64,000 bases of DNA from a bacterium (lineage in GTDB: Bacteria > SM23-31). The notes under the pieces are model-generated. The model saw nothing but the letters and a program-made list of their open reading frames with translations, was not told where the DNA came from and did not search any database. Made by a program: the position numbers and the translations under genes. The DNA is taken from positions 97,337 to 161,336 of the forward strand of contig CBDFMG010000005.1 in NCBI GenBank assembly GCA_965249485.1, written 5' to 3'. Positions 40,402-64,000 of this stretch are shown piece after piece (the stretch's first letter is position 1; each line of letters opens with the position of its first letter).

Positions 40402-40557
40402 ATGCCAAATTTTAGTGACATTCAGAAAGAAATTGAACACGAAGATATTCCCACCAAGTATATTATGACAGGTGAAGAAAAAAAGAAGTTGAAAAAATCA
40501 GTAGAAAAGAGCCTAAAACAAAACAAGCTAGTCTATGAAATGCTTCATGACCTTTAA
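40402..40557 (+). CDS. Putative Phd-like antitoxin
   Basis: 51-aa ORF MPNFSDIQKEIEHEDIPTKY... ending about 20 nt inside the Doc-family gene. Too short for the ORF track. Confidence 0.3.
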   Translation: MPNFSDIQKEIEHEDIPTKYIMTGEEKKKLKKSVEKSLKQNKLVYEMLHDL

Positions 40558-43098: not shown

Positions 43099-43099
43099 T

Positions 43100-44428: not shown

Positions 44429-44658
44429 CCAAGGCAGTATTCATTATAAGGAGCGTGGATTTCTCAAAGAGGATTCCGTGAACTGCCGCCGTACAAGTAC
44501 GGCGGCCTTCTCGCCGTGTGATTATAAATTGTCATCCTGCATGTTGGCCTTTGTGCAAATTTGCACAGAGGTTCTGTCAACTGAGACTCGGCATTTGAGT
44601 CCGCCAAAGGCGCAGCAGAATCCAGGGGCCTTATAAACAACTACACATCTGATGGGTA

Positions 44659-46159: not shown

Positions 46160-47641
46160 CTACATTCCTGTCTGAATGTATGTTGATTTGATAGTCACTT
46201 CTGCATCAACATTGCCAACAGTATCCAATAATACGTAGCCAGGAAGTGAGTGGCTGTCAATGAATCCCATAACATTATTGATCACGTAAAACTCTACAAT
46301 GTCCCCGGATTCTACAGGAACTGATGCGTGCCCTTCGTAACGAAGATCATCATATATGTATTCTATAGATCGTGCGGATACAATTATTGATCCTAAATCT
46401 TCAATGGACGTTATTGGTATGGAAGTTGGACTGTCATTATACCCAAGCGGTACTGACTTTACCAAATCACCGTTCACATAGACGTCCATAGTATTTGTCA
46501 GTGGATCTACTGGTGGTGGCGGTGGCGGTGGGATTGATCTGTCTTTGTAATAGTACGTATTGCTAAGTTTCATGGTTCCTGTAACCTCTGAATTAAACAA
46601 TGCGTTCATTGTGCCATCTGTACTGGCAATGGCATATGCAGATGCAACGACAGTGACACTTCCTTCCCTTACCTCATACGGATAAAATTCATTTTTAGTA
46701 GAAGTCTTGTCTTCAATCAAAAACAGCTCACGCTGACCCAGATTGTTGCCGTATTCAATTTGCACTTTCTGGGTGCCGTTGAGTATCATGTGTATCACTT
46801 TATGGTTTGCCACAAACGGCACATATACTGATTCCCCTAACTCATACTCCCCTGACAGATATGGAAGTGGAAGCGTTTCATCAAGGGACACATCACTCAC
46901 AGAAACGTCACCTGAAAACGGCACCTTAACGTATGCTATTGCACTGTACATTGAGTTGCTAATTCCAGGATCTGCTACAAACTGACGGTTATGGATGTCA
47001 TATACAGTAGGTGTGTTTGTATTAGTCATCGTCACTACCTCTGAGTCTATGTACAGCGTCAGTTTTACATCATCAACTACTGGCATTTCTGAATCTAAAA
47101 TATTCCATGGAACCTGGCTCGAAGTGATCTCAATTACTCCATCTTCTGTACCAATGCCGTCAACTACCTTCTTCCCATTAATTTCAAGAGAGTATGGCAT
47201 ATTCTCAGGGACGTTTGATATGTGCAAAAGATCAGTCTGTCCTGGTTTGATGTAATTTACACGTACGCCGATGTCACTGTTTTCAAGATCCGCTACAAAA
47301 TACGTTTTATCACTGCTTGGAAGGTTCCATGTCCTTTCAGGTGTCGTAGATTTTGTTTTTACAGGAAGTGAGTCATATATCGTATTATGATGGATGACTG
47401 TGTTTCTCGCCAAGAGGCTCCAGGCATATATCATATTAGGATTATTGCTGAGGACTAATTCTCTTGCAATCCTGCTGTCGCTCAGATTCATATAGTCTAT
47501 TTCTTGTATTTCAAGATAGCCGTTATTATTGAATACCGGCGTAAAAAATGTATTTATAGTGGCATGGTCATACTGGTGAGTAAATGTAAATGAACTCACT
47601 ACATTGTTTGCAGTTCCTCTTCCTGAGATACTTTTGGTCAT
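46160..47641 (-). CDS. Large hypothetical protein, probably extracellular
   Basis: 493 aa, Ser/Thr/Asn-rich with a PPPPPPP tract. Start uncertain. Confidence 0.35.
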   Translation of the reverse strand: MTKSISGRGTANNVVSSFTFTHQYDHATINTFFTPVFNNNGYLEIQEIDYMNLSDSRIARELVLSNNPNMIYAWSLLARNTVIHHNTIYDSLPVKTKSTTPERTWNLPSSDKTYFVADLENSDIGVRVNYIKPGQTDLLHISNVPENMPYSLEINGKKVVDGIGTEDGVIEITSSQVPWNILDSEMPVVDDVKLTLYIDSEVVTMTNTNTPTVYDIHNRQFVADPGISNSMYSAIAYVKVPFSGDVSVSDVSLDETLPLPYLSGEYELGESVYVPFVANHKVIHMILNGTQKVQIEYGNNLGQRELFLIEDKTSTKNEFYPYEVREGSVTVVASAYAIASTDGTMNALFNSEVTGTMKLSNTYYYKDRSIPPPPPPPVDPLTNTMDVYVNGDLVKSVPLGYNDSPTSIPITSIEDLGSIIVSARSIEYIYDDLRYEGHASVPVESGDIVEFYVINNVMGFIDSHSLPGYVLLDTVGNVDAEVTIKSTYIQTGM

Positions 47642-47877
47642 AATTGATTACTCCAAATTGTTCCGAATCAAGAACTGATCCTGTAAATATATTCATAGAG
47701 GTGAAAAAAGGATCACAATAACAACGATCAATTTCAAATCCAAATCCTAAATAATCCAAATCCACCGAATCCGAATAGTCAAGAGTTGTGAGGTCATATG
47801 GCGAATCTACAAGTCTGATTCTGTCATTTTCTGATACACTGTTAGAAAACACATGAAATACCATTGGGCTTGTCGTA

Positions 47878-48465
47878 TCAGTCAAGCCACTGCGAGGTAT
47901 TCCGATAAACACGCGTCCCAGTGCCATCAAGATTCAATATATGTGAATCTGAATCAATTGAGTGGCTCGTGCTGGCTCCCATGTGTCTTATCTGATAAGA
48001 TGAACTGTCATATGCGTAGCCGTCTTCGGTAGTATAGTCAAACTCTGTGGTTAGCCTGTCAAGGTCAGGCAAACCGCCCTTGGATTCAAACTCATAGTCT
48101 GCGTAAAGGCTGGGAATGTCAATCTCTTTTGTCGCAGCACCGTCAAATACGTATGCAATTTTCCTGACATTGTTGTCAACATCCAAGTATGGCCGAAAAC
48201 CATCAACCTCAAATCCAGACGGCTTGTGTAATATGACATTACCGTTTACATCCAAGTCAATGATTCTTGATTGATCAGTAATTGCAGATGATATGCTTTC
48301 AAGGGCTTTTTCAGCCACATCCCCGTTCTCATCATTACTTACATGAACCTCCTCTACTGGAAACATGTTGCCAAGCTCAGTGACAATAAAGATGTCCTCT
48401 GCAAAGGCAGGGGATATCAGAATTACAGGCAACGCTAATGCTAGCAGGCCGTACAAAGTCCTCAT
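47878..48465 (-). CDS. Secreted hypothetical protein
   Basis: Signal peptide MRTLYGLLALALPVILISPAFA. Confidence 0.45.
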   Translation of the reverse strand: MRTLYGLLALALPVILISPAFAEDIFIVTELGNMFPVEEVHVSNDENGDVAEKALESISSAITDQSRIIDLDVNGNVILHKPSGFEVDGFRPYLDVDNNVRKIAYVFDGAATKEIDIPSLYADYEFESKGGLPDLDRLTTEFDYTTEDGYAYDSSSYQIRHMGASTSHSIDSDSHILNLDGTGTRVYRNTSQWLD

Positions 48466-49143
48466 ACAATCAAATCATCAACATGTATTAGCAACCAAAT
48501 ATTGCTGCACACGTGCAGGTTCATCATCCAGAATGCGAAGCACCATTCCGTATCTGTTGGAGTTTTTCTCATATACGATAGTGATTCTCTCCCTGCCAAA
48601 AACGGTACAGGACAGTACAGAATCAGCATTTAGCAACACTGTCTCCATTCCGGAAATCTCTACTTTGATGATGCCATTCTCATCAATGTCAAGCATCCCT
48701 TTTTTTCCATATAATGAAACCGAAAAAGATTCCATACCAGAGATTGACAGATATTATTTAACGCTGTGAGCGGGGGTTCTGTCAAGTTCTAGTCACCTGA
48801 AGTGTGGATCTTCTCCGTGTTAAGAGTCGTCACCTAATCTGAGATATCATTGCAAAACTATCATTTGAAATTAAGGTGCCTGGCACCCCCCTGTCCAAAG
48901 TGTTCAAACCATGCGACAAAAGGAAGACTAAACTTCCAGTGGTGTGTCAGGCATGTTTGTATTGTAATACGCATATAATACGGTTATGCTGCATCATCGT
49001 CAGAAATATCTCTTAATTTTGTAATACCACGGCGAGAAGGCCACCGTACTTGTACGGCGGCAGTTCACTACATCTTCCTCAGACATGTTTTTCTCATTCA
49101 TAATCCGTGCGACATGCCCTGATACCTGTAAGATTCAACCGTC

Positions 49144-49353
49144 TCAATTTCTTCTTTCTTGTCTGGGTTTTTTTAATTTCATCGGCTCTCTATCTTTCGC
49201 TAATTCATTGTAAATATCCACTCTTCGAGGCCTGTTCCAGTATGCAGATTTGCATTTAGGACACAAGGCTGGTTCTTCTCTTATTTTTAATCTTGGTACC
49301 CAAGCATGACCGCATCTGTCACATTGAAAAGCTGGTAATGTTGTTTTTCCCAC
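49144..49353 (-). CDS. Small zinc-ribbon protein
   Basis: CDRCGHAW...CPKCKSAYW, two CxxC pairs, 69 aa. Confidence 0.4.
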   Translation of the reverse strand: MGKTTLPAFQCDRCGHAWVPRLKIREEPALCPKCKSAYWNRPRRVDIYNELAKDREPMKLKKPRQERRN

Positions 49354-49554
49354 GTCTTGTAATTACTTTACACTGTAATAAGTGTTGGTTTACTTAATAG
49401 AGTAACCTTTAACTATTACATTGCCCATATTACTATCATGCAAACTGACAAGATTCGGGCAATGAGAAAATATATGGTGACGTTTTGCACTGAAGATGTC
49501 GACTGCCGTCTGACTGAGACGTTAAACCAGACCACCACAGGAGGCTGGTAACCC

Positions 49555-50232
49555 ATGTTTGGGAGGAAGAAAAAAAACGTGGGCTTGCCACCAATTCCAG
49601 ACGAACTAAACTATTACAAACAACCCCCAAAAAGATCGTACGAGCTACGGCCAATCACGGTTGTTGATACGAGTTCCTTGTTTTCATGCTTTAACAGCAG
49701 TGAAAAGCAGTCAGACCAGATAGCAGAACACATGGAACTTTTGCATCCTGATGAGGTACACATTCCTGATGTGGTGGTGGAAGAGTTTGACAGCATTTAC
49801 AAAAATGGCGACAGAAGGTTTGCAGCAGACGGGCAAAGGCGCAGCCTGTTTGCAAAGTTTGTAGAAGAGCCCCCAAAGCTCAACGGAGGAGTGCCACGAG
49901 ATCTTGCAGAGCTGGAAGGCAAGGTAGAGGCAATGTACAATGAAATTTACCGTACACAGCTTCCACGTGTCGAGGGATGGGCAAACAGAAAGCAAAAAAA
50001 GCCAGCAGATATTATGGATTTGCAGATAAACAAAAACGACTGGCGAATACTTGCAGAGGCATCATACATTGCAGGCAAGCACAAGAATGGCGTAAAGATC
50101 ATGACCCTTGATATTGACTTTGTACTTTTTGCACCCGAAATATACGAGGTACTTGATGTCAGGATTGAAGACTGTAATATGTTCGGACAGATGAATCCGA
50201 CGACAGCATCACTTGAAGGAAAGCACCACTAG
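49555..50232 (+). CDS. Hypothetical protein, possibly PIN-like
   Basis: RPITVVDTSSL near the N-terminus and acidic residues later. The assignment is weak. Confidence 0.3.
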   Translation: MFGRKKKNVGLPPIPDELNYYKQPPKRSYELRPITVVDTSSLFSCFNSSEKQSDQIAEHMELLHPDEVHIPDVVVEEFDSIYKNGDRRFAADGQRRSLFAKFVEEPPKLNGGVPRDLAELEGKVEAMYNEIYRTQLPRVEGWANRKQKKPADIMDLQINKNDWRILAEASYIAGKHKNGVKIMTLDIDFVLFAPEIYEVLDVRIEDCNMFGQMNPTTASLEGKHH

Positions 50233-50381
50233 ACTAATAGAGTGAATATTTTAATTTCCATGAATCAGGAAGCCAACGACTTTATCATTTTTTATAATCA
50301 CACGGCGAGAAGGCCACCGTACTTGTACGGTGGTGGTTCACTGTATCGTTTTTTTAAATTTAAAGTCATGATAAAATGGTT

Positions 50382-50813
50382 TTAGGTGTGATTTTGATAG
50401 AATTTCCCACTCAATATTTGACTTACCATGAAACCTAAAAATCTACGGTATTTGATTTTGAATCCCTTTGCATGTCCTTTCGTTTTGTGGTGCGCCAGTT
50501 CATGACACATCAACTCGACTAATGCGAAATTACCGTACAGCATAGCTCTCTTTGACTGATTGTTGATTTTTGTTCCGAGGCATTTTTTTTCTGCCAATAC
50601 TTTTTGTCGTACTATCACTCTATGTGGTTTTGAATGCGTATAATGTGCATACCAACCACCAATAGATTTTCTTTTTATTTTTCTGCTATTCTGTTTTGAA
50701 AATGGAATTATCGTATCGTCTTTAATCTTCATGACTTCGTTTGGAAAATTTTCTTTTAGAACATTTGCAGTCTTAAAACAAATTTCCAATCCATCAGTTA
50801 TTTTCTGTTTCAC
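50382..50813 (-). CDS. DUF45/YgjP-like metal-dependent hydrolase
   Basis: HELAHH (HExxH) in the context ...NFALVELMCHELAHHKTKGHAKGF. Confidence 0.45.
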   Translation of the reverse strand: MKQKITDGLEICFKTANVLKENFPNEVMKIKDDTIIPFSKQNSRKIKRKSIGGWYAHYTHSKPHRVIVRQKVLAEKKCLGTKINNQSKRAMLYGNFALVELMCHELAHHKTKGHAKGFKIKYRRFLGFMVSQILSGKFYQNHT

Positions 50814-51155
50814 AATTCCATTACGTCATTAATTCATAAAAAGTTTTGAAAAAGTCATCTTGTTTTTGCATTACATGTTGATTGAAAACCCCACGTTTTT
50901 TTTTAAAATACAGTGTCGCAAAAAATTCTTCAAAATTAAAATTCAAAATTTGTTCGTAAAAAATATGCTAAAGATTCTTTTCAACATTAAAGAAATTCTA
51001 GATGCAGAAAGCACAGTTTTCGTTTTGGGAATAGATATGAAAAAAATTGAACGCGCATGGGATATTAGACACAAAGGATGCGTACCAGCTGTTTTAGAAG
51101 GAAGGGATCACACCGATAAATTGTTTCAACTTAAAATTCAACTGCCAAAAAAAAG

Positions 51156-51731
51156 TTGAAACAATTATCAGAATTTTTAGATTCACATGTAAAATTACGT
51201 ACCAGACAACAGAAATTAGCAGCAGGCGGAACTAGGAACAATCCTAGGAAGATCAAACACACTCTAAACACAATATATTTTGCTCCTAAAAACATATCCT
51301 CTGAAGAGAGGTTTAATGATGGAGTTTTTGATCATATAGTTGCTTCCTCTGTTTTGTATACTTGCTACAAAGACATTATGGAGATAGTTAAAGAAAATCC
51401 ATATAGCCTATATGATGCAGTTTTTGCATGTCATACTGCGCAATTTTTTGGTAAATTTCAAGTTGGGTATCCTGACGTTAAAGAGAATTTTCAACATGGC
51501 GGGTATGGCAAGGATATGAACATATGGAATACCATGCTAACTAAAGATGCTATGACATCTCACTGTCTACAGATTCTTGAAATTGTGTATAATGACCGTC
51601 ATGCTTTTGATTTTCTAAATTTGTTTGCTGAATACTGGGAGTTGACAGAAAATTATCGTAAACCAGACGATTATAATATGTACGTGGAAATGTTGCGTGG
51701 AGTTTTATCACGAATGCCATTTTTGAATTAA
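51156..51731 (+). CDS. Hypothetical protein
   Basis: 191-aa ORF with no motif. The upstream ORF 50860-51159 overlaps it by 4 nt. Confidence 0.35.
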   Translation: MKQLSEFLDSHVKLRTRQQKLAAGGTRNNPRKIKHTLNTIYFAPKNISSEERFNDGVFDHIVASSVLYTCYKDIMEIVKENPYSLYDAVFACHTAQFFGKFQVGYPDVKENFQHGGYGKDMNIWNTMLTKDAMTSHCLQILEIVYNDRHAFDFLNLFAEYWELTENYRKPDDYNMYVEMLRGVLSRMPFLN

Positions 51732-51820
51732 ATCACGAAAATAGATTCAAATCAATGCCTATGCATTATGATGATGAAGTAATCTCAAAACAGATCATTT
51801 AGTGAATAATTGATTGAGCA

Positions 51821-51988
51821 GGTTCTGGTAAATTCTGATGATCAGATCACCAGAAGTTAGCAGCAGGGTTTACAGCACCGCCCTTTGAGTTTGTTCTCAT
51901 ATGAAATTCTCACAAAGTTGCAAAATCTCAACTCAGAGAAGATCCTAAAACTATGTCTGGGGTGTTGATCACCAAAATCTACCAAAGC
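51821..51988. mobile_element. MITE of ~168 bp, copy A
   Basis: Near-identical to 55599-55766 and inverted at 62216-62362. Its ends are GGTTCTGGTAAATTCTGATGATCAGATCACC / GGTGTTGATCACCAAAATCTACCAAAGCC. No ORF. Confidence 0.7.
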
Positions 51989-52129
51989 CACCCTCTGTTG
52001 CAATTAAAAAACCTGCAGGTCTTCTTCCTTCAAGTTTATTGAATATTCTTTTTTCCCTATCATACTGCCAATAATGAATTGGAGCCTCGTATGGTTTATT
52101 GATGATAAGTGTTGGAATTGTAGACATCA

Positions 52130-54745
52130 TTAAATCTTAATTATTTTAAGTGATTCAATTCCACGAATGTCAATTATTTTAACAGCTACTTGTTTACTTG
52201 AACCTACTGAAAATGGCAATGATTTTGTTCCGCTATAATATTTAATTAACTCTTCATCAATTTCTGATTTCAAAGTCTTTGTCAATTTTGTCCAATTATC
52301 AATTGATCCAGAAGAATCAGGAAAGAATACTTGTTGTGGATAAAGACTTCTTTCATCATAGTCGGTGTCAAGCATCCACATTGCTATCTTAGATGTATCT
52401 CCGGATTCTATTTCACCAGTTTTTGTATTATAGTAATCAAATCCTTTAACTTCAACTATGTATTTTTCATCTTTTTGTTTTTTTAATTCTACATCTGGTT
52501 GTCCCATAAGCCAAAATGATTCATTACTTGCTCTTTTTTTCTTAAGATCTGAGGTAAGTAAATCTGCATTAACTTGAACCTTTAACACTTGAACACCAGG
52601 CCATTGCAGCTCATCAATATCTTTTGCAGCCTCTGGATCAAATTGTAATGAAGCAAAAATAATTAGTTTTGGTGTTGGAACTAACTTTTGTGCTTCTGAT
52701 ATGGCTAATGTAACTTGTTTTTGTTCTAAAAGAGAGTATTCTGTCCCAAAAGAAATTGCAGTTAGTTTTGGTTTAACTTCTTTTGTTTCACCAATCGCAT
52801 GAATCCATCGAGATGCTGGATGTGATTCTACTCTAGAAAATTCTATTTTTTGATTACCTTTTCCTCTAACACCTGTAATCAGTAGTTCATCTCTCCAATC
52901 TTGTTGGGTTTTATTTTCTGGAGTACGAGCAATTGAAGTATCAATCTCTGAACTTTCATTATATGATGCATCAAGTGATTTTACAATAGGTGAAGGAACT
53001 GCTTCTACAGTAAATGGACCAGAAATTCTAATCTTAGTTTTATCAATTAAAGGCTGATCCATAAGAATCTCTGTTTGTGGGATTTCATTATTTGCAATTG
53101 AGCTAGTTGTAATATGTGGAACCTCTTTACATTCAAAACCGCTTGTAATTCCTTCTTCTGGATGTTTTAATTTGTAATAATCAAACCTTGAAGTCATTAA
53201 TCTTTGTCTTGCCAGTGTAGTAGCAATTCTTGATGTATCACATGTTATCCATCTTCTTCCCCATTGTTCCGAAACATATGCTGCTGTTCCTGAACCACAT
53301 GTAGGATCAAATACAATATCTCCAGGATCAGTTGCTAAAAGAATACAATTTTGAATTATTTTTGGGTTAGTTTCAACAACATATCTGGCCCCTGTCACTC
53401 CTCCAAATCCTATCCATAAATTATCAATTTCAGTTACTGGATAATCAGAAAAATATCTTTTAAATCTAAGAGTGGAACCACTATCTAATATTCTATTTTT
53501 TTTAATACAATTTTCAAGACCTTCTTTAGGTGTACCCCACCATCGATTACCAGAATTAAATTTTTTTCCTTCGAACTCAATTTCAAATTTACTACCTGGT
53601 CCACCTTTCAATAAATCTGCTGAAGTAAATAATTTTGAATCTTTTGGAATCAAAGACAAATCTTTCTTTTCTTGACCGGTTAATTTTCGATAAGAACCAT
53701 CAATTAATTCAATACAGTCAAATCCAGCCCTGATAGGTTCCTTTTCTTCAAATAATGAATTAAATTTTAATTTTTTAATATCTTTTGCAAACCATAAAAT
53801 ATAATCCAATTTTGTTGAAAGTTTGTTTGTTGGTTGCAGACCTTTTGATGTTTTACTAAAAACAATCATATTCACAAAATTTTTTGAGAAAAATATTTCT
53901 TCCATTAATTCCCTGACATAATGTAAATTATCATCAGAAATTTGTACAAAACAACTTCCGCTTTCTTTTAGAAGTTTTTTGGCTAACAATAATCTACTTC
54001 GTAAATAACTCAAATAGGAATGAATTTCAAACTCCCATGTATCTCTAAATGCCTTTATCATTCCAGGCTCTTCTGTCAGATCTTCATCTTTATCCTGTCC
54101 AGCAGTAGTTTTTTTGTTCACAAAAGGTTGAAAGTTTGAACGGTATTTGACACCATAAGGAGGATCAATGTAGATCATTTGCACTTCACCTTCCATATCT
54201 CTCTCTTTTTCCAAAAGAGAATTCATAACAAGAAGAGAGTCACCTGTAATAAGTCGATTAGACCATCCTTGATCGTGTTTATAAAATTCAATTGCTTCTC
54301 TTAATGGAAGGTTATTTTCAGATTGTTCAAAGAAGGGGAATAATGTTTGTTGTTGAACACCTTGGTCTTTCAAAACTTTACTAATGATTGTCATAGGATC
54401 AATTCTTTCATGCCTATGAAGTGATACTGTATCAACTTCAAAATCAGAATTTTCAGATTTACCGTACCATTCAAGACTAGGATCAAGATGAGGATCACAT
54501 GAGTATTTTTTTGGAGGCATGTCTTTATCAGATTCTGGAGTCACTAGACCTACTGGTGGATTGTTTGCTCTTTTTTGTTTTTCGTGAATATATTGTTTAA
54601 TTGCAATTTTTTTCTTTTTAGATTCTCTAATTGGAGCAAGTTTTGATTTTTTTCTAGATTTTTTTGTAATTTTCTTTTTGGTTTTTGTTGTGGAATCTGC
54701 ATCTTTTAATCCCAAACTCGATAATAGTTTCTTTGATTTAGCCAC
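52130..54745 (-). CDS. DNA methyltransferase, beta-class (N6-adenine or N4-cytosine), Type III Mod-like, with Lys-rich N-terminus and long C-terminal extension
   Basis: Motif IV IYIDPPYG lies about 270 aa before motif I FDPTCGSGTAAY. That order defines the beta class. 871 aa. No adjacent restriction subunit is recognisable. Confidence 0.6.
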   Translation of the reverse strand: MAKSKKLLSSLGLKDADSTTKTKKKITKKSRKKSKLAPIRESKKKKIAIKQYIHEKQKRANNPPVGLVTPESDKDMPPKKYSCDPHLDPSLEWYGKSENSDFEVDTVSLHRHERIDPMTIISKVLKDQGVQQQTLFPFFEQSENNLPLREAIEFYKHDQGWSNRLITGDSLLVMNSLLEKERDMEGEVQMIYIDPPYGVKYRSNFQPFVNKKTTAGQDKDEDLTEEPGMIKAFRDTWEFEIHSYLSYLRSRLLLAKKLLKESGSCFVQISDDNLHYVRELMEEIFFSKNFVNMIVFSKTSKGLQPTNKLSTKLDYILWFAKDIKKLKFNSLFEEKEPIRAGFDCIELIDGSYRKLTGQEKKDLSLIPKDSKLFTSADLLKGGPGSKFEIEFEGKKFNSGNRWWGTPKEGLENCIKKNRILDSGSTLRFKRYFSDYPVTEIDNLWIGFGGVTGARYVVETNPKIIQNCILLATDPGDIVFDPTCGSGTAAYVSEQWGRRWITCDTSRIATTLARQRLMTSRFDYYKLKHPEEGITSGFECKEVPHITTSSIANNEIPQTEILMDQPLIDKTKIRISGPFTVEAVPSPIVKSLDASYNESSEIDTSIARTPENKTQQDWRDELLITGVRGKGNQKIEFSRVESHPASRWIHAIGETKEVKPKLTAISFGTEYSLLEQKQVTLAISEAQKLVPTPKLIIFASLQFDPEAAKDIDELQWPGVQVLKVQVNADLLTSDLKKKRASNESFWLMGQPDVELKKQKDEKYIVEVKGFDYYNTKTGEIESGDTSKIAMWMLDTDYDERSLYPQQVFFPDSSGSIDNWTKLTKTLKSEIDEELIKYYSGTKSLPFSVGSSKQVAVKIIDIRGIESLKIIKI

Positions 54746-54800
54746 AGATCTGAGATCAAATATTGACTTTTAACTAGATTGTTTTTTCTCATCTTCATAA

Positions 54801-55538
54801 TTAGAGATTTGGAACCTCAATCTTGTTTGTTCTCAAATAAGATAATAGATCATTGAACTTTTCTTCCAACTGGGAATTCTTTTCAGAAATCTTCTTGATG
54901 TTCTTCTCTACAGTTTCAAAATCAGAAATTGTAAGATGTGGTTCAACTGCCAAGTACATCTCTCTTTTCTTTTCATCGTTCAACTGATAGTAAGTATTCA
55001 TGTAGAACTGATGGCCAATCAGTGCTTCTGCAAAATCCCTGCCTGAGACATTGCCTACTGTAGTCCTGAAGAATTTTCTTAACGCATGAAAGTGGATTAC
55101 TTTGATTCCGTTAGGATTGGTCCTGTTCAGATCAGGAATCTTTTCGATATAGTATTTCAGTTGCTTCATCAGCAAGGCTTCTGCTGACAGATGGGTAGGC
55201 TGTTTCTGATGTCTGTCTGGATTGCGTTTGCCAAGTGGATCCTGGCCAAATATTACCACATCATCAAGGTGAGAATTGTCTTGCTTTTCATTCCACTGTA
55301 ATAACATGGAAAGATAATCTTTGAGTGCTTTTGTTGCCTCTGCTGTAATGAATGTCTCTCTTGCCTGCCTTGTCTTTGTGATTTGTGCTGGAAGCCTGAT
55401 TGTAGTAGGAGTTGTTGTAAAGTCAATGTCTGATAATTGTAACTGGACGAATTCTCCTATTCTCATTCCGCTTGATGATAACACAAGTACTACAGTCTGG
55501 ACTCTTTGTGGCACGTTTCTCAGCACTCTGAGAATCAT
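54801..55538 (-). pseudogene. Tyrosine recombinase (phage-integrase family) catalytic domain; the N-terminal core-binding domain is missing, interrupted by a MITE
   Basis: ...MRIGEFVQLQLSDIDF (box I R) ... HALRKFFRTTV...LIGHQ...NTYY (HxxR and Tyr). The open frame continues upstream into MITE 55599-55766 with no start codon. Confidence 0.5.
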
Positions 55539-55598
55539 TTCCTTGGTTAGTGCGACTTCAGGTTCACGAATGTTCTTTGGTATTTTGATAATATGCTT

Positions 55599-55766
55599 GG
55601 TTCTGGTAAATTTTGGTGATCAGATCACCAGAAGTTAGCAGCAGGGTTTACAGCACCGCCCTTTGAGTTTGTTTTCATATGAAATTCTCACAAAGTTGCA
55701 AAATCTCAACTCAGAGAAGATCCTAAAACTATGTCTGGGGTGTTGATCACCAAAATCTACCAAAGC
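55599..55766. mobile_element. MITE of ~168 bp, copy B
   Basis: See 51821-51988. Inserted between the integrase remnant and the eno fragment. Confidence 0.7.
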
Positions 55767-55770
55767 CTTC

Positions 55771-55909
55771 ACAAATATCCCACATAGGAATTGCAACAAA
55801 GTCAAAAATGCTCAAAGTTGGTATAGTTGGAGGAGAAAGAATAGCAAAACTAAATGAACTATTACGCCTGTCAGAGCATGATTTAATACGCGGTATGGCA
55901 GAGATTTAA
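55771..55909 (+). pseudogene. eno: Enolase 3'-terminal fragment
   Basis: Reads ...KVGIVGGERIAKLNELLRLSEHDLIRGMAEI*, the conserved enolase C-terminal tail. It starts abruptly at the MITE boundary. Confidence 0.4.
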
Positions 55910-55916
55910 AATTGTT

Positions 55917-56540
55917 ATGAGTCGACAAGCAGAAGCAACAGACATCAAAAAGAAGATCCTGGCTACTGGGATTAGAGTAGGAACACAAGTAAAGACAAAA
56001 TTCATGAAACCATTCATTACAAAAGCCAGTCCTGAAGGACTTTACATGCTTGATCTAGACATAACATTAGAGAAAATCAAAACCGCAGCCAAATTTATCA
56101 ACAGATTAGGAACAGACAAACTCATCGTATGTTCAGGTAGACAATATGCAGAAACACCAATTGAAAAATTCTGCGAAATGTTAGACTCTAAGAAACTTGT
56201 TGGAAGATTCATGCCAGGAACTTTGACAAATCCTTCATTACCATATTACATCGAACCAAAATTAGTCTTAATTTCAGATCCACAAGTTGATGAGCAAGCA
56301 ATTACAGAGGCAACAAATGCAGGAATTCCGGTCATAGGAATTGCAAATACAGATAATATTACATCAAAACTAGATGTGATTATTCCAGCAAATAATAGAG
56401 GAAGAAAAGCTCTAGCAACAGTTTATTGGTTATTGGTACGTCAAATTCTCATTGAAAGAGGAGAACTAAAAGAAGATGAACCAATGAAATATGAAATCGA
56501 TGATTTTGAAACAAAGATTACAGAAGAGGAAATCGAATAA
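55917..56540 (+). CDS. rps2: 30S ribosomal protein S2 (uS2)
   Basis: 207 aa with archaeal S2 sequence (...MKPFI...LYMLDLDITLEKI...GIPVIGIANTDN...). Lies in the conserved eno-rps2-mvk position. Confidence 0.7.
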   Translation: MSRQAEATDIKKKILATGIRVGTQVKTKFMKPFITKASPEGLYMLDLDITLEKIKTAAKFINRLGTDKLIVCSGRQYAETPIEKFCEMLDSKKLVGRFMPGTLTNPSLPYYIEPKLVLISDPQVDEQAITEATNAGIPVIGIANTDNITSKLDVIIPANNRGRKALATVYWLLVRQILIERGELKEDEPMKYEIDDFETKITEEEIE

Positions 56541-56566
56541 ATCAATAAAAATTTTAAAGTGTTTAC

Positions 56567-56827
56567 TTGAAATCTAAAGCTTCTGCACCAGGAAAAGTTA
56601 TTCTTTTTGGAGAACATTTTGTAGTATATGGAGTAAAAGCAATTCTTTGCACAATCAACAAGAGAGTTTCCGCCAACTTTCCAGTGTATCAAAGCTATAC
56701 AATTTCGGCGGGGCTCTGTAATAGAGTTTTAGAAATCCCAATCATTATTTTTTCTTTTTTTGTCAATGTAATGACACCCAACTCTTTTATCAGAAATGGT
56801 ATAACCATCAAAGTAGAAATTGGCTAA
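56567..56827 (+). pseudogene. mvk: Mevalonate kinase 5' fragment
   Basis: The N-terminus SAPGKVILFGEHFVVYG is the mevalonate-kinase signature. Homology ends after about 40 aa. An IS-end-like motif follows at ~56905. Confidence 0.5.
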
Positions 56828-57892
56828 AAGACATCAGCCACCAATTAATTACAGGCCAAAGGAGGTTCCCATAAAGCAGATCAAAATATGGAAGGATGCT
56901 CAGGCGGTTCTGGTAAATCTTCTGGCGTTTTCACATTTTTTGTTCGTAAAAAATATGCTAAAGATTCTTTTCTTCTGCATCAGTGAATATCTGCTCTGCA
57001 TAGAGTGATAATGATTGCAGTGTGTCGTGCGACAGTATGATCAGCAGATAGTTTGTGATGTGGTCTTTCAGGCGATTTTCTTTTCGCACTCCTTGTGTGA
57101 GGGCGACAACAAACGCAATTGCGTTTTTGTGGATGTTTTCTGCGTATGTCCTGATGTCTGCGTTTTCCCTCTCGCACATGTCTGCAATCTGATTCTCCAG
57201 TGACTCTATGATGTCAAGTTTTGCTTTATTAAATTTTTTGTAAATTTCATCTCTTGGCTTTTCTTCTAGATTCTCAGAAATTTCTGAGAAGAGTTTCAGT
57301 GTCTTGCTTAACAGTGCGTTCATCTCTTCTGTGAATACCTGGTCACGGATTATGCTGTGATGCATGATTATTGATTTGTTTTTTGATACTTGAATGTTTT
57401 ATGATTGGTTTTCCATGATAACAGAATATTTTGTCATTTGGATCCTTTCTTCCCTGAGTCATAGTTATTCCTAATTTTTCAAGATAATCATCATCCAACT
57501 TTAGAGCCTCTTTAATTTCATAATATCATGACTTGTCAGATTAATGTGGTTTGTGTTAATTTTAGGCTCAAGTCTAAAAAATCTGATTTTGTATTGCCTG
57601 GAGGAAACAAACTTGCAAAAATGATTCAAAATGATGGTTTTTTGGTGGTTGGAGTAAAATCAACCGATCTGATACACCGAGAAAAATCCACCAAAGATGA
57701 ACCACTATGTCCCAGTGGATATCGTGTTAGGTGACATGGAATATTTAGAGGAACTTGTAAAGGAAAAGAAAATTGTAGCCAGGAAAGTTAGTCGATGGGA
57801 CGTTTACAGAATTAAGAGAAAATAATCAAAATTTAACAAAATATTGACAGTTAAGGATCAGTTTTTATTATTTTTGTATCCCAGAACAAGAA

Positions 57893-59641
57893 TTGCTAAA
57901 AGAAGAGATTTCTAGTCCAACTGAGGAATTTATTGAGTCCATAAAGCAAAGCATAGCAGAACGGATAGATCCAAATGCCTCTACAGTAGAAATCGGAAAA
58001 GAGTTTCTAAAATGGGTTGTAACTAAATTGTTTGATGCGTCTGAAGACGATTTTGACCAACATTACACTGATGGTAAAAACGACCACGGAATAGACTTCT
58101 GGATACCAGATCCAAGTGACGAAGGCGAGGGCGGAGTGATTCAACTCTTCCAAATAAAATACGGTACATCACACAAACCAGAGTCCATTTACAAATTTAG
58201 AGATGATGTAGAAGAATTCTTCAAGATGAATCCAAACGATGTAGAAAGAGACGAACTGAAAGATGTTCTAAGAGAAAAGATGGAGAAAAAACTAGAGCCA
58301 GAGTTAATTTACGTAACCAACAACGACATAGACAACCTAGAGAAATTCAAGGGAATAACGGCAAAGGTATACGGCTTAAAACAAATTGAAGAAAAGTTAT
58401 GGGACAATTTATTCGGTAAACCAAAAGGTCAGGTTGCAAAGTTAAAGTTAGAAAAATGCATGACTTTCGATCATTCCGTAATGGGGGTGGTATCGCTTCA
58501 AGAACTAAGCAGATTTGTTAGAAATAACAAATCGTACATTTTTGAATCAAACATTAGAAAGTTTCTTGGGTCAAAGAAAACTAAGGTCAACAAACTGTTA
58601 CAAAAAACAATAAACAAAAACCCAGAAGATGTTTACAAGTACAATAACGGCATTACTCTTGTTGCTACTAAATTCAAAGACTTGGAAAACTTTGAGATAG
58701 AATTACATGAACCCCAGATAGTAAACGGAGCACAGACGGCGAACACTATCGCAACAGAACTTCAGTTTTATGATAATCGAATTGGAAGCGTACCGATAAT
58801 AATATTTCAAGAGGAAACTAAAGAGGTCAAAGACAAAATAACAAGATTTAGAAATTCTCAAAATGCAGTAAAAGGCAAGGACCTAATCTCTCTTGAAGCG
58901 ACACATAAAAACCTACACAGTCAGTTAAACAACATCGGTTATTATTACGAGTATCAAGCAGGAGGATGGCTTAGTCTACCAGACAAAGAAAAGAAGAAGT
59001 TTACAGGACATGAGACATACAACAAATACATTCTAGGAGAAAAAAAGAAACTTGACGTAAAAATAGACGCAAAAGATGCAATTCAAAGCATGGTGGCGGG
59101 AATTACACAGGAACCAACAAAACCCTACGGCAGTATTGCTAGGTATATGCCATCAGGAGCAAATTACGCCGATGTGTTCAACAGTGACCTAAAAGAAGAT
59201 TGGAGACTCTTTCTTTATCCATATCTTGTCAAGTGCTACTGCGTAAACAACTTCAAGTATGGTAAACAAGACCCAGATTTACCGGAACTGAAATACGCAA
59301 GACTGCTCTTCGTAACTGCATATTTTAGAATACTCAGCCAGTTCATTATCACGAAAGACGTTGACAAGATCAGAAAAGACCCAACAATATTGGAGCCATA
59401 CTTCAAAGATTTTGAGACAAATGAAAGACTCTTAAAATTCACCCATGAGATGATTAAACACTATGTTGCGACAGCACGACAATTCATGGAAGATCACAAA
59501 GAAAAGGTTACAACTTTGCATAACTTCTTTGCTAGATATGCATGGGATGAGTCACTTCAAAAGAATTTCATACATCACGTCATCGTCTACAAAGATGACC
59601 TAAAGAAAATTAAAGAAAGTTTCAAGAAAGAAAATAATTGA
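57893..59641 (+). CDS. AIPR-like / PD-(D/E)xK-like putative abortive-infection protein
   Basis: 582 aa. The N-terminus DGKNDHGIDFWIP...VIQLFQIKYG fits a D...(E/Q)xK nuclease-like core. The size and its position next to a methyltransferase and integrase resemble AIPR-family proteins. No search was run. Confidence 0.35.
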   Translation: MLKEEISSPTEEFIESIKQSIAERIDPNASTVEIGKEFLKWVVTKLFDASEDDFDQHYTDGKNDHGIDFWIPDPSDEGEGGVIQLFQIKYGTSHKPESIYKFRDDVEEFFKMNPNDVERDELKDVLREKMEKKLEPELIYVTNNDIDNLEKFKGITAKVYGLKQIEEKLWDNLFGKPKGQVAKLKLEKCMTFDHSVMGVVSLQELSRFVRNNKSYIFESNIRKFLGSKKTKVNKLLQKTINKNPEDVYKYNNGITLVATKFKDLENFEIELHEPQIVNGAQTANTIATELQFYDNRIGSVPIIIFQEETKEVKDKITRFRNSQNAVKGKDLISLEATHKNLHSQLNNIGYYYEYQAGGWLSLPDKEKKKFTGHETYNKYILGEKKKLDVKIDAKDAIQSMVAGITQEPTKPYGSIARYMPSGANYADVFNSDLKEDWRLFLYPYLVKCYCVNNFKYGKQDPDLPELKYARLLFVTAYFRILSQFIITKDVDKIRKDPTILEPYFKDFETNERLLKFTHEMIKHYVATARQFMEDHKEKVTTLHNFFARYAWDESLQKNFIHHVIVYKDDLKKIKESFKKENN

Positions 59642-60095
59642 GACTTGGGCATAATGATTTACAAAAATAATCTCAACGACACAGCATTCTCTTTACAATT
59701 CTTGGACTCTCACTTGTTTGCTCATGTTGCAAAAAACAAAACATACTAAGATCCTTAGCTTTTTTGATTGCAATAATTTGAGGAATGTAAGCAGATAAAA
59801 CAAATGAATGAAGAACGCAGTAAAGATTCGCAACTGCAAATTCAAGCTCGAGGTAGATTTTCTTTTCTAGTAGCCTTTACAAAATAAACCGAATTTAAAG
59901 ACACTAAATCTAACTGTGATTCTGAAAGCTTTTCTTTAATAATTGCTGAAGAAATTATTGCGTCTGAAATTTTTACACTGTTCAATCTTCGGGTGTTTTC
60001 ATATTTTTTATGCCTAAAAAATAGCAAATGTCCCTGAAGTTGAACAGCGTAAATGAAACAAAGAGATTTAAACTACAATACATCGCTATTATAAC

Positions 60096-61025
60096 ATGTC
60101 ACAGACTGTTGTTCCTATGAAGCCATTACATATATCATCAAAGGGTAGTATTGTCATTGGCAGTGTAGTAGATACTATAATTATGTCGCAAATATCCCTT
60201 AAGCCATTTGAAGTACCTGCACCAGTTAAAATAATTGATGGTAAACTACATGTCAATGAGAACGTATTAGAAAAAGATAGGATATATTCAGTAATGCACA
60301 ATAAACAAGAGTATTTTATTCGAAGACAAAAAGATGCTACTGAGATTTTTCAACTGAATGACTAATGTTTGGATCCATAAAGGCTTTTCTTGGACTAGGT
60401 TATTCAAAGAAAAAAATAGTTAATGTGATTAGGGTAGAAAGTGATGAATTTGAAATCTGTAAACCCAAATTAGTCAATACTCGAAAATATTTGTTCGGAG
60501 AAAAAAATCGATTAGTTCATTACAAGGACGATGAATATTTCACAGTGGATTTATAAGAATATGATTGAAGAAAGAGTTGACTTTACTACAGTAAGAGAAG
60601 ATTTTAGTGAATATGAAGTTGAAAATGGGGAAGTATTGAGAGTAAAAGCTGTCGTCACGGAAATAATCAATAAGACCGATGGCGACAAGGAAACAGGCGG
60701 TGATATTAGGTTTAGTACCATATCTAAAATATCTGCATCGGATCCAATTGATACAACTGATTTAGAATTAGAATCTGACCCCAACAAAGTAACTGAAAAA
60801 GATGAAGTAAAAGAATTGAAATTTAAAACTATAAAGGAAATTGTAAATATATACGAAACTGCAAACTCGTTAATTTTGGTAATTCCGTGTGTGACGAAAA
60901 TTGTTTTAACTAATAAAAAAGATCCGAACAATTTACCCCGTCTAAGATATTTACTAGTCACAGATGTTGCCGTTACAAGTAAAAAACCACTGCCAGTACA
61001 ACCCCTAAGTTTTAATTCCATATAG
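60096..61025 (+). CDS. Three overlapping small ORFs (89, 63 and 164 aa) forming a putative operon of unknown function
   Basis: Stop/start overlaps at 60365 and 60531-60556. No motifs. Confidence 0.3.
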
Positions 61026-61465
61026 AACGTAAAGAGAAAACTGATCACAAGAAAGAAAAGGATCTAACTTTACAGTGAGAGAAATTCAGAGAAAATCCCT
61101 AAGACTAAACAGTGTACTCAATCCTCTGATTTTCATCCATATTTCAGGTCTCTATAATGCAACAGAACCTTTATTTTTACACTGTTCAATCTTGGAGACA
61201 TTTGCTATTTTTTAGGAGCAAAAAATGTGAAAACACCCGAAGATTCAACAGTGTAGAAATTTTTACACTGTTACGTCTTAAGGGGCTTTCACCATTTTCA
61301 AACGACTGTTACATTCGAGGGCTGAGGTGTTACGTTAGGGGGCTACAGGTTTACTCCCAATATTGTAGACCAGTATTAGATGAGAATTTATCTAATTTGG
61401 AAATATGAACAACTTTGATCCCAGCGTAGTTAAAGTATTAAATAATACAAATCATAACATCATAT

Positions 61466-61609
61466 ATGAGCAAACGTGTTACAGTCATGATTGACGATGA
61501 CCTGGACAAAAAACTTAGGCATCTTCAAGCAAAAATGATTCATCAGAAACAATCAACATATAGTTATTCCAGAGCATTGAATGAAACCCTTCGTAAAGCT
61601 TTGAAATAA
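61466..61609 (+). CDS. Ribbon-helix-helix (CopG/Arc-like) small DNA-binding protein
   Basis: MSKRVTVMIDDDLDKKLRHLQAKM...SYSRALNETLRKALK shows a beta-strand followed by two-helix RHH pattern. Too short for the ORF track. Confidence 0.4.
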   Translation: MSKRVTVMIDDDLDKKLRHLQAKMIHQKQSTYSYSRALNETLRKALK

Positions 61610-62215
61610 TTATCCAGTCTTCTGAAATTAAATTTTGGAATGGAATGAAATTAAATTTTAAATAGCAAATTAGTGCAAGGCACGGGATCAGAAGAATAAA
61701 GAATAAAAATATAAACTACGATTATATCATTACAGAAATTGACTCCTGATTATCATTTAATGGCAACTGATCTCCTAAATGCAGGAATGGGTGATGAAGG
61801 TCGATTAAGATTCATCATTGATTGTATTGCTGAAAACAAACCGCTTTACAAAACAGATATGATGTTCTTAGAAACCATGAGCAACCAACTAGAGCAAAAA
61901 ATAAAGACACTCAAAGGAGATGACAAAAAGCAAAAAGAAACACATCCAAAGACATCGGTTTCTGAAGAACAACTTGGTGGAATAATAGATAAAAACGATC
62001 CAAAAAATACAGAAAAAATTATTCCTATAAGAAAAAAGAGATCCCTTTTTGCAAGAATCTTCTTTAGATAGGCTCTTTCAAAAGATCATTAGATCGCCAA
62101 CAATAAATCGATCGTACCATTACTAGTTGCAGAGTAAAAGACCTCCCCTGATCATACTCCCTCAAGACATGATCTTCCTATTGTTTTGGTCTTTTACTTT
62201 ATAATCACACGGTGT

Positions 62216-62362
62216 ATTCTGGTAAATTTTGGTGATCAACACACCCAGACATAGTTTTAGGATCTTCTCTGAATTAGAATTTTGCAACTTTGTGAGAATT
62301 TCATATGAGAACAAAGTCAAAGGGCGGTGCTGTAAACCCTGCTGTTAAATTCTGGTGATCCG
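62216..62362. mobile_element. MITE copy C, inverted and slightly shorter, abutting an IS5-family element
   Basis: Reverse complement of the 51821-51988 family. Its left flank (62197-62212 tttataatcacacggtg) is a partial type-1 repeat. Confidence 0.6.
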
Positions 62363-63438
62363 ATCGGGGTTGTCGCCAAATTCAACCAAATGATCTAATT
62401 TTGTAATTTTTCACGCATATTGATCAGGGAGGTATGGGTTCCCCAATGACTAACCATAAGAGACGTGATCAGTACTGGAAGTACTATCACGATGCCCACA
62501 CCCGAGAACTGGATTTTCTCACATCCCATATAGTTTCTTTGATTGTGGAGAATCCGTGTCCTGCACATGCCAAAAGGTCTGGCGCGGGACGCAAACCGGT
62601 ACACGACAAAAACAAGCTTGCATTTCTCTGCATACTCATGGTGTGCCTTGACTTTACATCCAGGGACATGGAGAATCTTGCAGCTCTGCTGAGGATGCCG
62701 TGGAACGAACCCCTGCCGGATCACAGCACCATTGCCAAGTTCATGCAGAAGATTCCGACTGCATGGCTTGAGGGCATCATTGCCTGCACGGCAGAATCAT
62801 GTCTTGCAGGGTTTGATGCCTCCTCCAAACTCAAGCTTGCATCAGACAGCACCGGCGTTGCTACTGGCAGATATTACATGGTGCAAAAAAACGTCAAAAA
62901 CAGGCACAAATCAGAGGTAAAACGTCAAAAGTATATCAAATGGCACGTGACTGCAGTACTGGGCCTGCAGGTCATACTCTCCTGCCGCATTACGGCCAGC
63001 AATGTGGCAGACACCACGGTTCTTGCATCCCTGATAGAGAAGATCAAAAAGACAGGCATTGCATTTTCTGGCAGCAGATTCAACGCAGACAAGGGATATG
63101 ATTCTGATGAGAACTTTAGGCTTGTCTTTGATGTCGGCATGACTCCAAACATAAAGCAGAGGAACAACGCCATAAGCAGCTCAAAACCATTTCGTAAAAG
63201 GGCGGCAGGACTGTTTGATGCAGATATCTACAAAAAACGTGGCATGATAGAGGGGATATTTGGAGCCGAGGAGACAGAGGGTCACCGGTTGCTGTGCAGG
63301 TTCAGAAAAAAGTCCACAAGAAGGCGGTTCGGACTGTGCAAGGCAATAGGATGGAACCTTGAGGTGTTAAACCGTCTAGAGTGTGCCGCAAGGCAGAATA
63401 TAGTGGTGGTGGCAGCTTGATGTGAATTTGGCGACAAC
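62363..63438 (+). mobile_element. IS5-family insertion sequence with 18-bp perfect TIRs, inserted into a MITE/palindrome
   Basis: TIR GGGGTTGTCGCCAAATTC / GAATTTGGCGACAACCCC. Flanked on both sides by GATCCGATC, a candidate target-site duplication. Encodes transposase 62434-63420. Confidence 0.65.
62434..63420 (+). CDS. IS5-family DDE transposase
   Basis: 328 aa. ...LASDSTGV... and NADKGYDSDEN (DxGYxS signature) with a downstream E. Confidence 0.65.
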   Translation: MGSPMTNHKRRDQYWKYYHDAHTRELDFLTSHIVSLIVENPCPAHAKRSGAGRKPVHDKNKLAFLCILMVCLDFTSRDMENLAALLRMPWNEPLPDHSTIAKFMQKIPTAWLEGIIACTAESCLAGFDASSKLKLASDSTGVATGRYYMVQKNVKNRHKSEVKRQKYIKWHVTAVLGLQVILSCRITASNVADTTVLASLIEKIKKTGIAFSGSRFNADKGYDSDENFRLVFDVGMTPNIKQRNNAISSSKPFRKRAAGLFDADIYKKRGMIEGIFGAEETEGHRLLCRFRKKSTRRRFGLCKAIGWNLEVLNRLECAARQNIVVVAA

Positions 63439-63504
63439 CCCGATCCGATCATCAGAATTTAACAGAACCCAGCATCAGTTGTAGAGAGCCTGCACCGCAA
63501 TAAA

Positions 63505-63975
63505 ATGAACACAAAAGATATGACTGCAGCCTGCGTGTTTTTGAGTGAATCCATAGGAAAGTCAAAGGCTGCTCGCTCTCTTGGAATATCTTCACAAACT
63601 CTAAAAAAATATCTTGGGTTTGCAGCAGTTCCAGAGAAGCTACGACAGTTTGTTCCAAAGGAGTTGTCACGTGATGATTGTACCAAATTATATCAAATAA
63701 TTTCAAATGTATCAAAGGCAGTCAAAGTTGCAGTGAAGTTAATTCCGCTGGACCAGAAACTCAGAAAAGAGTATCTTAGAGTATTGTCTCGTAGTCCAAA
63801 GTCATCACATCTAAAATTACTAAAAAAGGCAAAAAGTGGAATGCTCCAACGGAAAGTTATTATTCTATTGAATAAAGGAAATGCTAGAAAATTGAAGAGT
63901 TTAGCTGCAAGAAAAGATATTGAGGTAACTGAGATGGCAGTTAAGATTGTGTCTGATTATTTGAAGAGAAGGTAG
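63505..63975 (+). CDS. Hypothetical protein with a possible HTH
   Basis: KSKAARSLGISSQTLKKYL resembles a helix-turn-helix. 156 aa, Lys-rich C-terminus. Confidence 0.3.
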   Translation: MNTKDMTAACVFLSESIGKSKAARSLGISSQTLKKYLGFAAVPEKLRQFVPKELSRDDCTKLYQIISNVSKAVKVAVKLIPLDQKLRKEYLRVLSRSPKSSHLKLLKKAKSGMLQRKVIILLNKGNARKLKSLAARKDIEVTEMAVKIVSDYLKRR

Positions 63976-64000
63976 AATTTAGGCACAGAATATATGATTT

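Follow-up and report, generated by a model that had tools for sequence, protein, structure and literature searches.

The 901-bp segment carrying a 3′ piece of eno, a complete rps2 and a 5′ piece of mvk is probably a partial copy, recent and ectopic, of the native rpoN-eno-rps2-mvk-ipk-idi locus. In the window, as the whole 64-kb stretch of DNA analysed is called here, it forms part of a 5,990-bp patchwork made up of truncated genes. Eno, rps2 and mvk would be supplied by an intact native locus elsewhere in the same genome, to judge from the presence of such a locus in the same metagenome and of a strain in which the site is empty. The feature is an ordinary scar of IS/MITE activity in a genomic island, and its kind is already known. 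Capture of a duplicated fragment in a region rich in mobile elements was what the original prediction had favoured on inspection of the letters, and it is backed by the 99.67% identical native locus that is intact, at 1323x, in metagenome ERZ26167216, as well as by the empty site in a co-occurring strain and the non-native character of the surrounding genes.

Extent and identity of the segment

The DNA of the window is low-GC and belongs to Nitrosopumilus. Window positions 55768-56668 (901 bp) correspond to positions 9852-10752 of L001 with 99.67% identity, 3 mismatches and no gaps (blastn, MAFFT). L001 comes from a Nitrosopumilus MAG and is contig ctg495133 of ERZ26167216 (1,087,642 bp, 1323x), and on it eno, rps2 and mvk are all intact. 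Identity of the segment to other Nitrosopumilaceae native loci is 83-95%. Homology to native loci stops sharply at both ends, at 55768 and at 56668. Its sharply bounded near-identity and a site that is non-orthologous to that of the native locus mark the segment as a probable ectopic and partial duplicate of eno-rps2-mvk.

The eno' stub (55768..55909, forward strand) consists of the last 46 of 412 enolase codons and the stop codon and is non-functional (tblastn, native-locus alignment). When the L001 protein is used as the tblastn query, Eno residues 367-412 of 412 fall on 55769-55906 with 100% identity. A 33-aa ORF of this stub, ending ...GGERIAKLNELLRLSEHDLIRGMAEI, has no Pfam domain. The 'mvk stub (56567..56668, forward strand) holds the first 34 of 315 mevalonate kinase codons. 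It begins MKSKASAPGKVILFGEHFVVYG at 56567, and after Mvk residue 34 homology to the full L001 protein ends (tblastn); from there the stub runs into unrelated DNA, giving a chimeric 86-aa ORF that ends at 56827 and has a weak match to the GHMP/GalKase signature. Homology over about 40 codons had been claimed for this stub, and the tblastn result shortens it to 34. Both stubs, eno' with its 46 codons and 'mvk with its 34, are dead. Between them rps2 (uS2) is complete, as had been read from the sequence: its 207-aa ORF (55917..56540, forward strand) has the Pfam Ribosomal_S2 domain and scores 225.5 bits against NCBIfam uS2_euk_arch, for which the cut-off is 211.5. No further eno or mvk sequence was found by tblastn elsewhere in the 64-kb window.

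The native locus in relatives

Gene tables give the native order as rpoN-eno-rps2-mvk-ipk-idi-polyprenyl synthase. Around native eno-rps2-mvk are tRNA-Leu, rpoN, ipk, idi and a GGPP synthase gene. The tRNA is tRNA-Leu(GAG), whose gene is ~290 bp upstream of native eno and just upstream of rpoN. The eno-rps2-mvk cluster had been described as conserved, and a synteny comparison over 80 Nitrosopumilaceae loci, obtained by an rps2 scan with one genome per species, bears this out: eno is upstream of rps2 in every one of the 80, and mvk is downstream in 77. On L001 the full-length neighbours of rps2 score above the NCBIfam equivalog cut-offs (TIGR01060 for eno, TIGR00549 for mevalonate kinase). The assignment of this native locus to ERZ26167216 came via the rps2 cluster member P0242, which led to L092, identical to L001. 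Among the 80 related species representatives, none has an ectopic rps2. Enolase acts in gluconeogenesis and mevalonate kinase in isoprenoid lipid synthesis, both of them core functions encoded in single copy.

Chromosomal setting of the copy

Two copies of a 34-bp direct repeat, R, lie at 50949..50982 and 56939..56972 (both forward strand) and are 100% identical. A repeated segment of 35 bp at 50953-50986 had been reported in the original prediction; the repeat itself is real, but its length and its left position needed correction. The right copy overlaps the 3′ end of a 135-aa ORF (56958-57365, reverse strand), whose only homologue led to L087, a 757-kb chromosomal contig (228x) of ENA sample ERZ26167216. 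In L087 the site is empty, window positions 50898-50982 and 56939-57409 being contiguous there with a single R. Since the 5,990 bp that separate the two R repeats are absent from L087 and the outer flanks adjoin there, this stretch is an indel. Its content is a patchwork and comprises a weak KAP-like fragment, MITE A, an orphan methylase with a truncated integrase, MITE B, the eno'-rps2-'mvk segment, a parB-like stub and a terminal-inverted-repeat stub.

The L087 counterpart of window 63470-63999 runs into core genes (L16/L10e, tRNA-splicing endonuclease, arginase), and amoA is on the other side of the site, which places the empty site between amoA and rpl10e. These flanking core genes of L087 show the window to be a chromosomal hypervariable island and a non-native neighbourhood for eno. 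A large insertion splitting the native locus, which had been raised as an option, is unsupported at a site between amoA and rpl10e where the flanking genes are non-native. Among the contents of the island is an ICE-like, GC-rich set of genes (VirD4, VirB4, TrbL, TadC and FlaI-type proteins) together with defence genes (for a TIR-domain protein, AIPR, PIN and Fic) and several IS elements. Judged as an integrated element, the 5,990-bp unit has flanking 34-bp repeats and an empty site in a relative; however, its integrase is truncated, and R is unlike the tRNA-Gly region beside the 99% identical full-length relative of that integrase.

Two further contigs of ERZ26167216 have the same stub arrangement with the same junctions, within 10-14 kb of matching DNA. 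One of them, L084 (13.8x), is colinear with window 47042-57409 and departs from the window at 57409, with a further rearrangement at a MITE copy. The other, L085 (5.3x), is colinear with 47775-61701. Since the intact L001 and both L084 and L085 are in ERZ26167216, original and stray copy co-occur in this sample. One co-occurring strain, that of L087, is without the stray copy, and at least four structural variants of the one site coexist in the one sample. The two junction sequences have no match in viral_contigs or in JGI metagenome_contigs, and data of the ERZ26167216 type are to date the sole source of the stub arrangement.

The left junction and the MITEs

The left edge of the 901-bp segment is the base directly after the right end of MITE B, at 55767; the abrupt start of the eno tail at a MITE boundary had been correctly recognised, with the MITE ending at 55767 and the segment beginning at 55768. 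MITE B (169 bp; 55599..55767, forward strand) has 23-bp terminal inverted repeats, GGTTCTGGTAAATTTTGGTGATC, as delimited by self-blast and alignment of copies, and is flanked by unrelated cut genes, int' to its left and eno' to its right. MITE A (51821..51989, forward strand) is 98% identical to it, has the same orientation and cuts the other side of the mod-res piece. More MITE copies are at 62197-62365 and 1025-1194, and the family has at least four copies in the window in addition to 47-bp mini versions, with more in L084. The elements are small, non-coding and multi-copy and have terminal inverted repeats, as MITEs do. MITE-type ends also enclose an IS110-type element at 12329-13815, and a DDE_Tnp_1 IS at ~62366-63469, a candidate autonomous partner, has a terminal repeat that agrees with that of the MITEs at 20 of 23 positions. 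No consistent target-site duplication (2-9 bp) was found at any MITE copy. Two right-end junctions of the MITEs can be set against an uninterrupted target (eno and res), and both are just 3′ of TTGA in the target. Because target-site duplications are not recognisable, MITE-by-MITE recombination and adjacent deletion leave the same picture.

To the left of MITE B is a 5′-truncated tyrosine integrase gene (54801..55598, reverse strand; Pfam Phage_integrase), of which 265 codons are open to the MITE edge. Full-length relatives of the integrase have ~376 aa, and the window copy is without ~110 N-terminal codons; the closest full-length relative (99%) adjoins tRNA-Gly(CCC). The same piece includes an 871-aa N6/N4 DNA methylase of the type III Mod-like kind (52130..54745, reverse strand; Pfam N6_N4_Mtase), which is orphaned, as the Res gene found in relatives is missing. 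An int-mod-res arrangement is present in L081 and L083. Window 51990-55599, with methylase and int', matches L081 3959-350 at 99.5%, and integrase homology to L081 and L082 ends at 55599. Since the int-mod homology to L081 ends exactly at the inner edges of the two MITEs, MITE A and MITE B both have mismatched flanks. Flanks mismatched in this way point to recombination between copies of an element or to deletion next to one.

Two other ways of accounting for the truncated integrase beside eno' were considered and rejected. One was that eno had been the attachment site of the integrase; its 99% identical full-length relative sits at tRNA-Gly(CCC), so that the eno junction is probably not the work of the integrase. 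The other was a split integrase of the SSV type; the break is exactly at the MITE end, and L081 is colinear past the break.

The right junction

At the right break, mvk codon 34 is joined directly to a parB-like 5′ stub (56669..56905, forward strand), whose 237 bp cover the DNA upstream of the gene and roughly its first 28 codons. No repeat or microhomology is recognisable at this junction, and there is nothing repeat-like at the mvk break to suggest one-ended transposition. The sole match of the parB-like stub is to L087 9545-9339 at 75% identity, where the full-length ORF has a ParB_N domain (E = 5e-12). A parent of the stub was not found. The stub is itself truncated, by the remnant of a terminal inverted repeat of MITE/IS type (GGTTCTGGTAAAT...; 56906..56938, forward strand). 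The GGTTCTGGTAAAT at 56906 is identical to the opening 13 nt of the terminal inverted repeat of the MITEs, and 56906..56938 resembles the 87-bp terminal repeats of an element at 59967-61262.

An IS-end-like motif had been placed at ~56905 in the original prediction and both stubs were described as cut by mobile elements. The motif is real and starts at 56906, but it is 237 bp past the mvk break and cuts the parB-like stub instead. The claim for both stubs holds for the left one, which abuts a MITE end, but not for the right one, where there is a plain junction to the parB-like stub. A GSGKS-encoding motif at 56906 was also considered, as the Walker A motif of a KAP NTPase in two parts, which circularisation of the 6-kb unit would reunite. 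This was rejected: the frames are unjoinable, the KAP match falls short of its cut-off, and it is with this motif that the terminal inverted repeat begins.

The rps2 copy

The rps2 protein of the window differs from that of the native L001 allele by Q3R, and by having L47 where the native one has P47. This third window/L001 difference is due to the native L001 lineage, which alone has P47; Q3R and one synonymous change are common to all island copies when compared with the native allele. Q3R is present in all four island copies, and among the 80 native loci position 3 is Q or E only. L084 and L085 additionally carry T50A and V174A, and T50 is invariant in the 80 native loci. At the nucleotide level, all island copies have G at 55924 and 55961, and L084 and L085 have further private substitutions at 55913, 56064 and 56437; none of these is present in the native contig. 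The exact rps2 protein of the window is recorded on one 161-kb contig only, and the near-identical members of its cluster (P0124, P0165, P0127) belong to other samples.

The substitutions of the island lineage are 3 non-synonymous against 1 synonymous, a weak argument about selection with only 4-6 substitutions in all. Too few for a test, they hint at relaxed constraint, and there is no sign of selective maintenance. The rps2 ORF is open in all four copies, and with divergence from the native copy of only ~0.3% an intact ORF is to be expected without selection. The last 40 nt before the ATG (55877..55916, forward strand), which include TTTAATA, are a putative rps2 promoter/initiation region. 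In 78 native loci this stretch is conserved by column even at eno third codon positions; its predicted function is that of the rps2 promoter, which would have travelled with the fragment. As rps2 is intact and its own conserved 40 nt upstream are present, the copy may be transcribed. Most likely it is a redundant passenger under relaxed constraint.

Origin of the copy and alternative explanations

A plausible course of events is that a piece of the native locus, probably longer than 901 bp, was copied into the island and that a MITE inserted in the redundant eno copy. Recombination between MITE copies, or deletion, would then have swapped the part upstream of the MITE for the int-mod-res island piece. 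An illegitimate junction or a deletion would have fused mvk codon 34 to the parB-like stub.

On another reading, an integrase-bearing element beside the native locus (e.g. at tRNA-Leu(GAG)) would have excised imprecisely with host DNA and re-integrated at the present site, as happens in specialised transduction or when an F-prime forms; its attachment sites would be the 34-bp repeats, and the stub would be a fossil of an earlier integration site or of an earlier host. Such an origin is unlikely. The fragment is indeed 170 bp from the integrase gene, whose 5′ end is towards it, the 5,990-bp unit between 34-bp repeats is at the 3′ end of a protein gene and has an empty counterpart, and there is the tRNA-Leu gene so close upstream of native eno. 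However, the 99% identical full-length integrase adjoins tRNA-Gly(CCC), neither tRNA-Leu nor eno, and R is unrelated to the tRNA-Gly region. The present adjacency of int' and eno' is secondary, since a MITE is exactly between them and int is shortened there by ~110 codons. Capture from tRNA-Leu, moreover, should have brought rpoN and the whole of eno. It is distinctly improbable that the MITE family is Pack-MITE-like or composite-transposon-like and moves pieces of host and island genes between strains, with rps2 expressed as a second uS2 variant (Q3R); if true, there would be MITE gene-fragment shuffling in archaea and an island-borne ribosomal protein. Retention of a working, promoter-bearing uS2 by the island for the benefit of element or host (through dosage or a variant ribosome), with the stubs as mere edges of the capture, is very improbable. 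Rps2 was spared by both breakpoints, its ORF is intact in all four copies and the conserved 40 nt upstream are included, all of which would speak for such retention. Against it, the copy is only ~0.3% divergent from the native one, the 3 non-synonymous changes to 1 synonymous include one at a position that is invariant in the 80 natives, a co-occurring strain is without the whole unit, and 0 of 80 related species representatives have an ectopic rps2.

There is even less likelihood that the arrangement is an assembly chimera, with abundant native-locus reads (1323x) misjoined at repeats into a low-coverage island contig. The native locus is ~50-250x more abundant in ERZ26167216 than the island contigs and the left junction is at a repeated MITE, features on which misjoining could feed. 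Yet the same two junctions recur in three separately assembled contigs (that of the window, L084 and L085) with differing downstream contexts, the right junction is not at a repeat, and the island copies hold private substitutions missing from the native contig. Single long reads would also have to contain two switch points, with 901 bp between them. The chimera that had been named as a possible refutation is, on these grounds, unlikely. Almost no credence can be given to the reading in which the stray segment is the sole copy, the native locus itself being broken and the strain either without functional enolase and mevalonate kinase or with both in pieces. Though there is no other eno or mvk in the 64 kb, the neighbourhood is non-native, the orthologous site of L087 (amoA to rpl10e) is entirely without the fragment, and the flanking DNA on either side consists of pieces from other elements. 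The reading would further require two breaks no more than 901 bp apart in a locus whose synteny is shared by 80 of 80 relatives, and the two enzymes, as is well established, have single-copy core functions. Both the chimeric and the sole-copy readings are made unlikely by the co-occurrence of original and stray copy and by the co-occurring strain that is without the latter. A recent ectopic partial copy, made redundant by an intact native locus, remains the preferred reading.

The copy calls for caution in annotation. Taken without their context, the stubs could pass for loss of enolase and mevalonate kinase, and the additional rps2, if scored as the duplication of a single-copy marker, would inflate the estimate of contamination of a MAG. 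It also documents fast IS/MITE reshuffling of a hypervariable island in a natural Nitrosopumilus population. The rps2 copy, if both expressed and kept, would be a rare archaeal ribosomal protein carried on an island, but the data favour a neutral passenger.

Comparison with known systems

The segment is like the gene relics and partial duplicates of IS/MITE-rich islands in having truncated chromosomal genes joined directly to transposable-element ends, mismatched element flanks, indel polymorphism between strains and an intact original elsewhere. Unlike typical relics of such islands, the piece is from a conserved ribosomal/mevalonate cluster and one complete essential gene has been kept; further, one of its two junctions is not at an element end.

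Gene fragments are captured by the Pack-MULEs and Pack-MITEs of plants and by the IS-bounded composite transposons of bacteria. As in these, near-identical direct MITEs bracket a 3.6-kb mod-int' piece of another island, and, as with a Pack-MITE, one of the MITEs has a fragment of a host gene directly at its outer end. In contrast to them, the rps2 fragment has a MITE on its left only, and target-site duplications were looked for around the units without success. MITE-bracketed capture of the rps2 fragment was rejected, its right side being a plain junction to the parB-like stub. Ribosomal protein genes have been reported for phages and metagenomic viruses, and the segment shares with these virus- or element-borne genes the presence of a complete ribosomal protein gene in mobile, non-core DNA. 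It differs from them in being a near-identical, very recent copy of a host gene that has flanking stubs and shows no sign of selection; the rps2 of the window is not on a recognisable virus, and its junctions are absent from viral_contigs.

Integrated elements of Thaumarchaeota may be present as a direct-repeat-flanked unit that overlaps the 3′ end of a protein gene, and the gene set of thaumarchaeal ICEs includes VirB4, VirD4, VirB6, TadC and FlaI/PilT-like ATPases (PMC6563490, Krupovic et al. 2019). The 5,990-bp unit is like such integrated elements in its tyrosine integrase, its direct repeats at the 3′ end of a protein gene and the empty site in a relative, and the surrounding region has the gene set listed for the ICEs (PMC6563490). 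Unlike them, it has a truncated integrase, the full-length relative of which is at tRNA-Gly, and its patchwork of stubs is not a coherent element. The setting of the 901-bp copy is close to that of decayed integrated elements of Thaumarchaeota, and its resemblance to Pack-MITE or composite-transposon capture is superficial.

Age of the rps2 duplication and strain variation at the site

Codon 47 of rps2 encodes proline in the abundant native allele (L001, identical to L092, the Nitrosopumilus rpoN-eno-rps2-mvk-ipk-idi locus) and leucine or isoleucine in 79 of 80 relatives and in all island copies. The island copies thus keep the ancestral state, so the duplication is either older than the change to P47 in L001/L092 or derived from a sister strain. 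The island site exists in at least four structural variants together within one metagenome, ERZ26167216.

Among the strains of this sample, that represented by the chromosomal contig L087 is missing a 5,990-bp segment of the window, at whose edges are 34-bp perfect direct repeats (50949-50982 and 56939-56972; L087 counterpart 10394-10426). These repeats may stem from an attachment site, from microhomology or from a portion of an element end. In the strain variant on the minor contig L084 (8140-8601, compared with window position 57409 and 62086-62365), the region of the AIPR abortive-infection gene is missing and the segment with MITE C, a copy of the 169-bp element, is inverted and joined at window position 57409. 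A type III methylase gene at 52130-54745 is an orphan in the window. Its counterparts at the related loci L081 (1204-6725) and L083 have after them a gene for a Res subunit of 956-968 aa and two more that are Holliday-junction-resolvase-like; in the window, MITE A stands in place of these.

Insertion elements and their miniature relatives

A DDE_Tnp_1 insertion sequence at 62366-63469 is likely the autonomous partner of the MITE, judging from agreement of their terminal inverted repeats at 20 of 23 positions. It splits a parB-like gene that is intact in L087, with 91% identity between the L087 gene and the 3′ part in the window (63470-63999). At 4937-4983, 8758-8798 and 12046-12092 there are mini-elements, 41-49 bp long (47 bp in those read at both ends), that amount to scarcely more than a back-to-back pair of MITE terminal inverted repeats. 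The two copies of an IS110-family element (DEDD transposase, 371 aa; 12329-13815 and 1862-3231, 94.7% identical) have the same insertion point, directly past the hairpin that terminates a MITE-type end, which suggests that this hairpin is targeted site-specifically. A further element, 1.3 kb long (59967-61262), has 87-bp inverted repeats at its ends, and no recognisable transposase was found within it; a solo copy of its repeat at 56906-56955 overlaps the 34-bp direct repeat.

Conjugation block, defence-type genes and other repeats

The block from about 14928 to 48800 is GC-rich (~45% against ~34%) and contains an ICE-like set of conjugation genes, encoding VirD4/TraG-like (14928-17846), TadC/T2SSF-like (17836-19710), VirB4-like (33031-34956) and TrbL/VirB6-like (37339-39372) proteins and a FlaI/T2SSE-type ATPase (44659-46155). 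It also has a tRNA-Lys(CTT) gene (35369-35457) adjoining a 44-bp perfect palindrome (35133-35176). The island is dotted with genes of defence or toxin type: those for a TIR-domain protein (13830-14537), a Fic/DOC protein (40535-41176), a PIN-domain protein (49555-50232) and the AIPR protein (57893-59641).

Two ORFs have a duplicated N-terminal TBP domain in common, which lies in a 385-bp inverted repeat (29596-29980 and 31579-31963, 99.7%). The ORF at 29616-30629 is a chimera of the TBP domain with a Cas12f1/TnpB TNB domain, and is probably the product of rearrangement.

An intergenic repeat of ~50 bp, with the perfect hairpin core CCACCGTAC-TT-GTACGGTGG, has at least eight copies in the window (917-967, 31967-32013, 32961-33010, 34968-35019, 43073-43103, 44477-44527, 49028-49068 and 50292-50341), the majority within the ICE-like block; these repeats could be REP-like elements or terminators.
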